The notes below the pieces were generated by a model that saw only the letters and a list, made by a program, of their open reading frames with translations, did not search any database and had not been told where the DNA came from. A program made the position numbers and the translations under genes. A DNA stretch of 64,000 nucleotides, taken from Escherichia coli (GTDB taxonomy: Bacteria; Pseudomonadota; Gammaproteobacteria; Enterobacterales; Enterobacteriaceae). Where the stretch lies: NCBI RefSeq assembly GCF_050320075.1, contig NZ_CP190018.1, one strand, 5' to 3'. This document shows positions 5,836 to 43,484 of the stretch, one piece after another (position 1 is the stretch's first letter; every line of letters begins with the position of its first letter).

Positions 5836-6198
5836 TGAGCCACAAATAGAACATTAGCATTGAGCCTCTATAATTTTGGTGCGCATAATGTATATTATGT
5901 TAAATGTGGTGGGTTTGTTCTTAAGTTCATGTGTTCCGCTCTTTCAGTAGCTTAACTGATGAATCAGTCAGCAGCTCTTGCCGTGCAAGCTACGCGGCGG
6001 TTCGTACCAGATTGGCCACCTCCATCTCCTGGTTCGCTTTCCCCTCCCCCCGGTAAACCTCACCCAACGTTAATTAATGATGTCAGTATGTGGGCGCTAT
6101 CCTTGTATGTAAAATCCACTGACGATTACGCCCATCTGTGAAAAAAAACTCACAATGCCATTCGATGCATCTCCATACTGAACGAGGCGTTATCGTCT

Positions 6199-41667: not shown

Positions 41668-41783
41668 GAGGCCTTTGCTGCGACTGCCATGTTCGGGTCG
41701 CAGCATCGCACACTCTCCAACATGAAATGGCTAAATGGATTATTGTTGCGTAGGAAGGAACGCTACTGAGAGTAAAGACACTA

Positions 41784-42068
41784 ATGAAAATGGCCAATCA
41801 TCCCCGCCCGGGGGACATTATTCAGGAATCACTGGACGAACTTAATGTCAGCCTGCGCGAGTTTGCCAGAGCAATGGAAATTGCGCCCTCAACGGCAAGC
41901 CGATTGCTGACCGGAAAAGCAGCTTTGACACCAGAAATGGCGATTAAACTTTCCGTGGTGATCGGCAGTTCGCCGCAAATGTGGCTGAATCTGCAAAACG
42001 CCTGGAGTCTGGCAGAGGCAGAAAAAACGGTGGATGTGTCGCGATTACGCCGTCTGGTTACGCAATAA
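41784..42068 (+). CDS. yddM: HigA/Xre-like HTH antitoxin-type regulator
   Basis: 94 aa with [24 protein letters not shown]; no cognate toxin ORF adjacent. Confidence 0.75.
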
Positions 42069-42073
42069 TAAAT

Positions 42074-42100
42074 ATCCTCCGGCATAGCCGGAGGTTTTTC
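42074..42100 (+). terminator. Rho-independent terminator after yddM (cctccggc ata gccggagg TTTTT)
   Basis: GC stem followed by T-run, read directly. Confidence 0.7.
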
Positions 42101-42815
42101 AAATGCGCCTGTAAGGCTCTGTTACCAGCCGCGCCCTAACAGGCGCATACGATCTGACATTTGCATTCAACTTCGTTACTTACGGCCCGTAAACGGGCTG
42201 CCCGGATATGGAATCGATAACTGCTCCCCCATTTTATCCTCTTCAAGCTGGTGCTTTATGTAGTCCTGTATCTTCGCCGTGTTCTTACCCACCGTATCGA
42301 CATAGTACCCTCGGCACCAGAACTCCCTGTTTCTGTATTTGAATTTCAAATCCCCAAACTGCTCGTAAAGCATCAGACTGCTTTTCCCTTTCAGATATCC
42401 CATAAAGCCGGATACGCTCATTTTGGGTGGGATTTCCACAAGCATATGGATATGATCTGCGCAGCACTCTGCTTCCAGAATCCGTACGCTTTTCCACTCA
42501 CACAGCTTTCTCAAAATACTGCCTATCGCCCTACGCTTCTCTCCGTAAAACGCCAGTCTTCGGTATTTCGGCGCAAAAACTATGTGATATTTACAGTTCC
42601 AGCGGGTGTGCGCTAAGCTCTTTTCGTCCCCCATTGGGACCCCCTTTTGATTTCTTGTTTGACACTTGCAGTTGCCAGACCGCAAGGTGTTTTAACAAAT
42701 CAAAAGGGGTTTTAATAACTGGCTCAAAGCTGAAAGCTTTCCGGAACCCCCAGCCTAGCTGGGGGTTTTCTGTGCACAAAAAAAATGGCGCTTCTTAAAG
42801 CGCCATTTTCAGCTT
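42100..42815 (-). mobile_element. tnpA: IS200-like element (IS200/IS605 family) with Y1 transposase tnpA 42176..42634
   Basis: TnpA starting MGDEKSLAHTRWNCKYHIVFAPKYRR with HIHMLVEIPPK (HUH) motif; element boundaries approximate, set by the flanking terminators. Confidence 0.8.
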
Positions 42816-42830
42816 AAAGTTCAAAAGAGA

Positions 42831-43484
42831 TTATATCCCTTCTTCACTCTCTTTTTTCGCTTCTGCCTTCTCGATTTCACGATACCAGCGCGGATGGTGT
42901 TTCTTCGCCCAGCGACGGCTCACCTTTCCTTCGATCATCCCTTTAATCGATCCTTTCACCCAGAATGCCATATACATATGGATCAGGATGGCGTGGATCA
43001 GGATGATACCCGCAGCCGCGTGGATCAGCAGGCTATAACGGACAACCTGTATCGGGAAGTACTGCGCAAAGTACGGACGCCAGATAATCACCCCGGTCAC
43101 CAGCAGCACGAAAATCATGCTCATGATCGACCAGAACATCATCTTTTGCCCGGCGTTGTACTTACCGACATCCGCCACTTTGTGCTCATTGCCTTTTAAT
43201 ACTTCGACAATGTTCAACAGCCACGGAATATCTTTCTTATCCGGGATGTTGTGATGCACAAAACGCACAAACATAAACATCAGCGCGACGAAAATCGCAA
43301 TGCCGAAGAACGGGTGCAAAATGCGTCCCATCTGCGGCGTACCGAAGGTTTGCGTCAGCCATTGCAGCGTCGGGAAGAAGAACGAAATCCCGGACAGCGC
43401 CACCAGGAAGAAGCAAATCACCACGGTCCAGTGACAGGCGCGATCAATAAATTTGGTGCGCACAATCATTTTCGACTTACTCAT
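42831..43484 (-). CDS. fdnI: Formate dehydrogenase-N gamma (cytochrome b) subunit
   Basis: 217 aa from [19 protein letters not shown]. Confidence 0.95.

Follow-up and report, generated by a model that had tools for sequence, protein, structure and literature searches.

The Y1 (HUH) transposase gene that lies between the convergent genes yddM and fdnI of this Escherichia coli genome raises the question of whether it marks a mobile insertion sequence or a resident chromosomal gene and, in the first case, of where the element ends, why it sits where it does and what it may have done to its neighbors. The original prediction, made on the 64,000-nucleotide stretch of DNA analyzed here (hereafter the window), was that of an IS200-type transposase convergent with yddM and codirectional with, and downstream of, fdnGHI. 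Both the family assignment and the arrangement were borne out. On the left, yddM (41784–42068, plus strand) encodes a HigA-family antitoxin/HTH regulator; the other neighbor, fdnI (42831–43484, minus strand), encodes the gamma subunit of formate dehydrogenase-N, lies upstream of the transposase gene and is read in the same direction.

The transposase

The tnpA gene (42176–42634, minus strand; nt 145–603 in the numbering of the element given below) is an uninterrupted reading frame for a 152-amino-acid Y1 (HUH) protein. It carries the HUH motif as H61-I-H63 (residues 61–63) and the catalytic tyrosine as Tyr125, whose replacement in the Y125F mutant provides a catalytically dead control (Ellis et al. 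2015, PMC4513863). The protein matches Pfam Y1_Tnp (PF01797) with an E-value of 1.1e-36 and 126 bits (cut-off 23) and NCBIfam transpos_IS200 (NF033573) with 143.9 bits (cut-off 55). Its closest relatives of solved structure are the IS200-type transposases of Sulfolobus (PDB 2EC2, 2.4e-23, and 2F4F), to which TnpA aligns along its length, and the TnpA proteins of IS608 (2A6M, 3e-19) and ISDra2 (2XM3, 5e-16). The list of open reading frames starts the gene at a TTG codon (42685, 169 amino acids), whereas RefSeq, in a genome identical to the window here, starts it at the ATG at 42634 (WP_000502112.1), which is the better reading. The RefSeq label of that protein is the generic "IS200/IS605 family transposase" and not IS200C, while the window TnpA differs from the TnpA of IS200C (WP_000526135.1) at only 4 of 152 residues. 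No other open reading frame of the element has a family match, the remaining ones overlapping tnpA in other frames. A single tnpA encoding a 152-residue Y1/HUH protein with Tyr125 is the organization of Salmonella enterica IS200 and of E. coli IS200C; IS608 of Helicobacter pylori and ISDra2 of Deinococcus radiodurans, whose TnpA proteins are homologous, also carry tnpB, which the window element lacks.

Boundaries and termini of the element

The stop codons of yddM and fdnI are 762 bp apart in the window and 50 bp apart in two alleles that are empty at this site (L002 and L003), which gives an insert of 712 bp. We assign it to 42067–42778 on the minus strand, with nt 1 of the element at 42778 and nt 712 at 42067, so that its end coincides with the last two bases of the yddM TAA stop codon. 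The interval first proposed (42100–42815) was thus shifted by about 33 to 37 nt: it lacks 33 nt at the right end, among them the hairpin at 42076–42094, and takes in 37 nt of the chromosome, where the ancestral terminator (42782–42809) lies. The length compares with 707 bp quoted for the Salmonella IS200.

The ends, TGTGCACAGAA... on the left and ...GGATATTTATT on the right, are common to 10 E. coli IS200 copies at nine sites; they are not inverted repeats of each other, and each is followed inwards by a subterminal hairpin. Because T runs hold both junctions, the termini are ambiguous by 1–2 nt. They were examined by comparing occupied sites with the empty sites of K-12, a comparison in which an element starting with TTT was excluded by the sseA site and one ending in TTT by the window and deaD sites; termini of the form T+core+TT and TT+core+T are both compatible with the result. 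The gnd-ugd site was uninformative, the length of its T-run varying between strains, and the plaP and wzzB sites have other neighbors in K-12. We prefer T+core+TT since it reproduces the published nt 12–34 numbering: with nt 1 at 42778 the left-end hairpin falls at nt 12–34 and the 5'UTR stem at nt 70–138, against 12–34 and 69–138 in the published Salmonella IS200. Only T residues are repeated at the junctions, and in a T-run target a T duplication of 1–3 nt is indistinguishable from T residues belonging to the ends of the element. The window copy resembles IS200 and IS200C in being without terminal inverted repeats and without a demonstrable target duplication. The segment 42067–42778 is, almost certainly, an intact copy of IS200, that is, a member of the IS200 group of the IS200/IS605 family, with tnpA only and without tnpB.

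Hairpins and RNA structures at the two ends

Terminal hairpins are characteristic of this family, and both were found. The left-end hairpin (42745–42767, minus strand; nt 12–34), detected both by folding and as a repeat, has a 10-bp perfect stem and a 3-nt loop. In IS200 this hairpin is described as terminating transcription in both directions and protecting tnpA from transcripts that enter from outside (PMC4513863), and by analogy with related elements it is presumed to be the subterminal hairpin bound by TnpA. It is followed by a 5'UTR stem-loop with 16-nt inverted-repeat arms (42641–42709, minus strand; nt 70–138), whose RNA folds at -47.3 kcal/mol (z = -3.85); the stem at nt 69–138 of IS200 is known to sequester the Shine-Dalgarno sequence (PMC4513863). 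The region as a whole matches the Rfam family STnc490 (RF01405), the IS200 left-end/5'UTR RNA, at 42644–42767 on the minus strand (nt 12–135), with 146.4 bits (gathering score 56), E=2e-31 and all model positions (1–124 of 124) covered. The left-end layout specific to IS200 and IS200C is thus present in full, with its nt 12–34 hairpin, its Shine-Dalgarno stem at about nt 69–138 and its STnc490/art200 region. The same 23-nt left-end hairpin occurs in IS1541, the IS200-like element of Yersinia pestis, whose first 11 nt read TGTGCCCAGAA against TGTGCACAGAA in the window element. Weak Rfam matches to Ysr202, STnc320, SdsR, TarB and sX6 fell far under their gathering scores on terminator hairpins and were put down to chance or to generic features of terminators.

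An antisense sRNA, art200, is predicted at about 42626–42715 on the plus strand by homology to its published description (PMC4513863). Since the STnc490 match is in the sense of tnpA and art200 is described as its antisense, the predicted coordinates of art200 derive from that paper and not from the Rfam match. A candidate promoter for the art200 region can be read from the sequence, with a -35 box TTTACA (42589–42594) and a -10 box TAAGCT (42613–42618); a consensus promoter scan of 41700–43000 returned no sigma-70-like site for either tnpA or art200. Expression of tnpA would be expected to be very low, in agreement with what has been published for IS200, as the left-end hairpin would block read-through from fdnGHI, the 5'UTR stem would hide the ribosome-binding site of tnpA and art200, if made as predicted, would act as an antisense sRNA.

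At the right end, a hairpin of the form CCTCCGGC-TAT-GCCGGAGG (42076–42094, minus strand; nt 685–703; DNA fold z = -3.4) is terminator-like on both strands. On the top strand of the element it is followed by ATATTTATT; on the plus strand it reads CCTCCGGC-ATA-GCCGGAGG and is followed by TTTTTC. It is kept in all the IS200 copies examined and is missing from the empty alleles. Between it and the tnpA stop codon lies a second, interior inverted repeat (42103–42148, minus strand; nt 631–676), with 14-nt arms that are 93% complementary.

The insertion site and its neighbors

The element had been placed between a yddM terminator and a fdnI terminator. The empty alleles do not have two such structures: their sequence, ...GCAATAA|AAAAAATGGCGCTTCTTAAAGCGCCATTTTCAGC..., contains a single hairpin with A/T runs on both sides, directly 3' of the yddM stop codon, and this one bidirectional terminator serves both convergent genes. 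What looked like the yddM terminator in the window is the right-end hairpin of IS200. The ancestral terminator is chromosomal and survives at 42782–42809 as a bidirectional intrinsic terminator with a 12-bp perfect stem, folding at -13.9 kcal/mol (z = -5.6), and IS200 entered at its T-run on the fdnI-sense side.

The consequences for the two genes should be limited. The fdnI terminator is intact, its T-run now counting 8 T against 7 and leading into the left-end hairpin, and read-through into tnpA should be minimal. In contrast, yddM has been separated from the shared terminator; 8 nt past its stop codon it now runs into the right-end hairpin and TTTTT, a probable substitute. Since the fdnI terminator is intact and the right-end hairpin probably replaces that of yddM, the insertion is likely to be almost neutral, and its retention by entire lineages fits this.

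Distribution of the insertion and identity of its variants

Occupancy of the yddM-fdnI junction was surveyed in 5,426 complete E. coli genomes with 41700–43200 as the query. The site proved polymorphic: IS200 is present in 303 of the 5,426 genomes (~6%) and the other ~94% are without it, nearly all of them matching the flanks only. At least 80% of the element is found somewhere in 2,063 of the 5,426 genomes, at up to 35 matching places per genome, carrier genomes having about 9–35 each. K-12 MG1655 has no IS at the site, in line with the original prediction; its fdnI-yddM spacer measures 406 bp and is made up of a tandem pair of 178-bp units, both of which contain REP-like palindromes and one copy of the terminator hairpin.

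These data bear on whether the gene could be a resident one. A RAYT (TnpA_REP), a domesticated REP-associated tyrosine transposase that would not be a mobile IS, is also a Y1/HUH relative of IS200 TnpA and also acts on hairpin DNA; the window TnpA does give a weak match to NCBIfam REP_Tyr_transpos (NF047646; 5.2e-07), and K-12 holds REP-containing repeats at the same intergenic site. However, that match scores 29.6 bits, below the cut-off of 80, against the far stronger score for transpos_IS200, and the gene is absent from the site in most genomes while being multicopy in its carriers. It is moreover bordered by IS200 ends and a terminator instead of inverted REPs. Family scores and distribution together refute a resident single-copy RAYT gene, to which we give practically no credence. 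The idea of a conserved gene lost from K-12 was rejected likewise, with only 303 of 5,426 genomes occupied.

Most E. coli copies belong to the IS200C variant, which is ~95–96% identical to the window copy, and only 215 records contain copies at least 99% identical to it; IS200C-type and other diverged copies that were compared differ from it by 27–35 nt (3.8–4.9%). Of the 303 occupied genomes, ~215 would thus be of the window type and ~90 of the IS200C type, a split estimated from identity bands and not counted directly, so that the remaining carriers probably hold the IS200C variant (~4% divergent). Genomes identical to the window at the locus include 28Eco12 and NMBU_W05E18, both documented as ST38 and the latter also as phylogroup D. 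An IS200C-type copy occupies the same site in the same orientation in strain 98222 (L004) and at least 40 identical genomes.

The relationship between these two occupied alleles can be read in two ways. They share the terminator, the orientation and the fdnI protein allele WP_000045646.1, and the many IS200 copies of carrier genomes are possible conversion donors, so that a single ancestral insertion, followed by gene conversion from other copies and by slippage of the T-run, would account for both. However, the IS cores of the window and L004 differ at 27 of 709 positions spread across the whole element, and the divergence between the flanks of these alleles (2.5% on the left, 1.0% on the right) is about as large as that which separates them from the empty alleles (2.3% and 1.2–1.3%). 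The junctions read 2A|IS|8A in the window and 3A|IS|7A in L004, where the empty allele has 7 A. Slippage would need two separate events to produce this coordinated +1/-1 shift. Because a single different insertion point would produce it, we favor independent insertions on the same terminator, as judged from the sequence comparison, and regard one converted ancestral insertion as unlikely. The insertion had been put forward as a strain marker; it does serve as a marker, but "strain" is too narrow for an insertion found in whole lineages, including ST38, with a second variant at the same terminator; lineage marker is the better term, for a site that was hit at least twice.

Movement or dormancy

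In strain ETEC1738, the interval between deaD and mtr holds a copy with 0 differences over 712 positions from that of the window, and this identity favors recent movement, on an evolutionary scale, of precisely this variant. Two studies describe IS200 as almost immobile (PMC4513863; PMC12594629), and the window copy may for that reason be dormant. One may go further and see in it a dormant fossil, retained for the sake of its left-end transcripts (5'tnpA and art200), which would serve the host as regulatory sRNAs in the way reported for the IS200 of Salmonella. The literature presents IS200 as essentially immobile and its 5'UTR-derived sRNA as a regulator of virulence regulons (PMC5435999, PMC12594629, PMC4513863), and the left-end RNA structure is perfectly conserved in the window copy. 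Against this, tnpA and both ends are intact, the identical copy at another locus of another strain speaks for recent movement, and two variants whose junctions differ by 1 nt share the terminator, a sign of repeated insertion. We therefore hold the fossil to be possible but rather improbable. The two descriptions, dormant fossil and mobile IS200, are not mutually exclusive.

Target preference and orientation

Each of the 10 E. coli copies examined, at nine distinct sites, has a GC-rich hairpin and a T-run directly before its left end on the IS top strand. In eight of these nine cases the hairpin lies just 3' of a co-directional gene (deaD, sseA, htpX, yfeX, lom, wzzB, plaP or gndA, and fdnI). 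The comparison was extended by scanning species-representative genomes for the 23-nt left-end hairpin, which yielded at least 118 usable unique flanks from taxa other than E. coli, with Yersinia pestis, Vibrio ruber, Brenneria, Dickeya, Edwardsiella and several metagenome-assembled genomes among the matches listed. The E. coli copies were collected separately, and L133, a divergent pseudogene copy that lacks an exact match to the hairpin, was left out. The resulting set comprises 127 unique IS200-type left-end flanks from many taxa, again among the matches listed.

Among these 127 listed flanks, the 45 nt located 5' of the element fold to -10 kcal/mol or better in 97.6% of cases, against 19.9% for random TTTNT occurrences at the same loci. 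With a strict perfect-stem terminator pattern the values are 77% of the 127 listed flanks, 6.4% of random TTTNT and 1.9% of random 45-mers. The five bases 5' of nt 1 are T-T-T-N-T, position -1 being T in 125 of the 127 listed flanks. Survivorship of harmless insertions alone would not give such exact positioning, so that these figures point to a real target specificity of IS200.

The orientation of the element follows the same logic, as targeting of a terminator places it co-directional with fdnGHI. With respect to replication, the leading strand could not be told from GC skew, which was too noisy across the 64 kb, and the dif site was used instead; it lies at 5878–5905, 36.9 kb from the element, as in K-12. 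Given this position, and provided that replication ends near dif and that the region is not inverted locally, the fork would pass the element toward lower coordinates, and the IS top strand (minus) would be the lagging-strand template. TnpA of this family acts on single-stranded DNA at the lagging-strand template, and a matching orientation has been reported (PMC5027513).

The window copy resembles IS608 and ISDra2 in more than its homologous TnpA: each end has a subterminal hairpin, a short specific sequence precedes the element on its 5' side, and the orientation puts the top strand on the lagging-strand template. By analogy with these elements, TnpA would move IS200 as single-stranded DNA ("peel and paste"): it would bind the subterminal hairpins at nt 12–34 and nt 685–703, the top strand would be excised as a circle, and the circle would then be joined to the lagging-strand template on the 3' side of a short target, with no duplication of the latter. 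The target here would have been the T-run of the single bidirectional terminator of fdnI and yddM, and the element would have landed directly behind the fdnI terminator, in the direction of both fdnGHI and replication. This single-stranded mechanism is extrapolated to IS200 from IS608 and ISDra2.

The targets of IS608 and ISDra2 are plain tetra- and pentanucleotides (TTAC and TTGAT). IS200-type copies, unlike them, lie after a TTTNT that nearly always has a stable hairpin in front of it, and the placement of IS1541 after a hairpin and T-run is of the same kind. We lean, if only slightly, toward an intrinsic terminator in its DNA form as the target of the IS200 group, with TTTNT behind a stable hairpin and exposed as single-stranded DNA on the lagging-strand template, and toward a near-obligatory and structural recognition of it instead of that of a plain short sequence; the right end of the element, a hairpin followed by ATATTTATT, would then mimic the target. 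Such mimicry, if true, would explain the tandem copies of Y. pestis, where IS1541, whose copy number is much higher, occurs as copies 710 bp apart, none of which is seen in the window. The association with terminators is partly known. Rho-independent terminators were reportedly proposed as hot spots of IS1541 by Odaert and colleagues in 1998. A 2025–26 preprint describes terminator-like sequences upstream of IS200/IS605 elements. New would be only the near-universality (98% of the 127 listed flanks) and the structural recognition.

Significance

The insertion is an ordinary and already known one, annotated in RefSeq and present at the same site in hundreds of sequenced genomes, and it leaves the current understanding of IS200 unchanged. 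It provides a presence/absence marker that tags ~6% of complete E. coli genomes, ST38 among them, with two distinguishable alleles. It also calls for caution in annotation, the apparent yddM terminator belonging to a mobile element and the ancestral terminator being common to both convergent genes. More generally, it is an example of IS200 settling where it would do little harm, after the terminator of a co-directional operon and with its own end hairpins probably keeping termination on both sides. If the terminator-targeting model is true, IS200 would be a "safe-harbour" transposon that lands after co-directional genes, its left-end hairpin lying behind the intact terminator of the upstream gene, its right-end hairpin turned to the other neighbor, and the two together keeping both sides terminated.

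Targets of IS200-type elements

Among the matches listed, IS200-type elements carrying the exact 23-nt left-end hairpin of the IS200 copy studied here (window 42745-42767) were nearly always located directly 3' of a hairpin followed by TTTNT, a structure resembling an intrinsic terminator (127 unique left-end flanks at loci L005-L133, from E. coli and other taxa). This placement was seen, among the same matches, in Enterobacterales and Vibrio as well as in MAGs assigned to Desulfovibrionaceae (Mailhella), Oxalobacter, Bacillota and Saccharibacteria.

In Yersinia pestis NCTC5923, two loci carry tandem IS1541 copies (L071, 2661-3393; L073, 12605-13337), whose left-end hairpins lie 710 bp apart. 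At L070 and L117, the right-end hairpin of another copy directly precedes the left end, with ...GGATATTTAT(T) abutting TGTGCCC. This suggests that the terminator-like right end can itself be an insertion target.

The exact 23-nt hairpin also occurred, among the matches listed for L005-L065, in MAGs of distantly related groups (Bacillota, Saccharibacteria, Elusimicrobia and Desulfovibrionaceae). In these assemblies it usually lay about 100 nt or less from a contig end, probably reflecting assembly breaks at multicopy IS elements. Its presence there could be due to either horizontal spread or mis-binning.

Rfam families at the IS200 ends

The Rfam family STnc490 matched window 42644-42767 (-), on the tnpA-sense strand, with the left-end hairpin as its first element. 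By contrast, PMC4513863 describes art200, an sRNA that used to be called STnc490, as antisense to tnpA. As the Rfam model lies on the sense strand, the family seems to describe the sense-strand left end and 5'UTR, and not art200 itself. At the other end, the Yersinia sRNA family Ysr202 gave a weak match (window 41995-42099, +; 29.5 bits, where the gathering score is 315), the 3' part of which aligns with the IS200 right-end hairpin. In Yersinia, Ysr202 may correspond to a transcript whose end lies at the right end of an IS1541 copy.

Genomic context of the insertion site

An exact 28-bp match to E. coli dif, GGTGCGCATAATGTATATTATGTTAAAT, was found at window 5878-5905 (+), 36.9 kb from the IS200 element, and the window therefore covers the replication terminus region. 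The neighbouring yddM encodes a HigA-family antitoxin. No toxin gene was found upstream of it in the window (41668-41783, the region directly upstream) or in K-12; in some of the E. coli genomes surveyed, a RelE/ParE-family toxin is annotated beside yddM. The antitoxin in the window therefore resembles an orphan remaining after loss of its toxin gene.

The fdnI-yddM spacer measures 406 bp in K-12 MG1655 (L134, 1493-1898), compared with 50 bp in the minimal allele. It contains two tandem 178-bp units, 98% identical, each comprising REP-like palindromes and one copy of the terminator hairpin, which is therefore present three times in this spacer. In other E. coli genomes of the survey, the fdnI-yddM spans fit 0, 1 or 2 units. 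The fdnI-yddM site is thus a hot spot at which hairpin-associated insertions of more than one kind have occurred.
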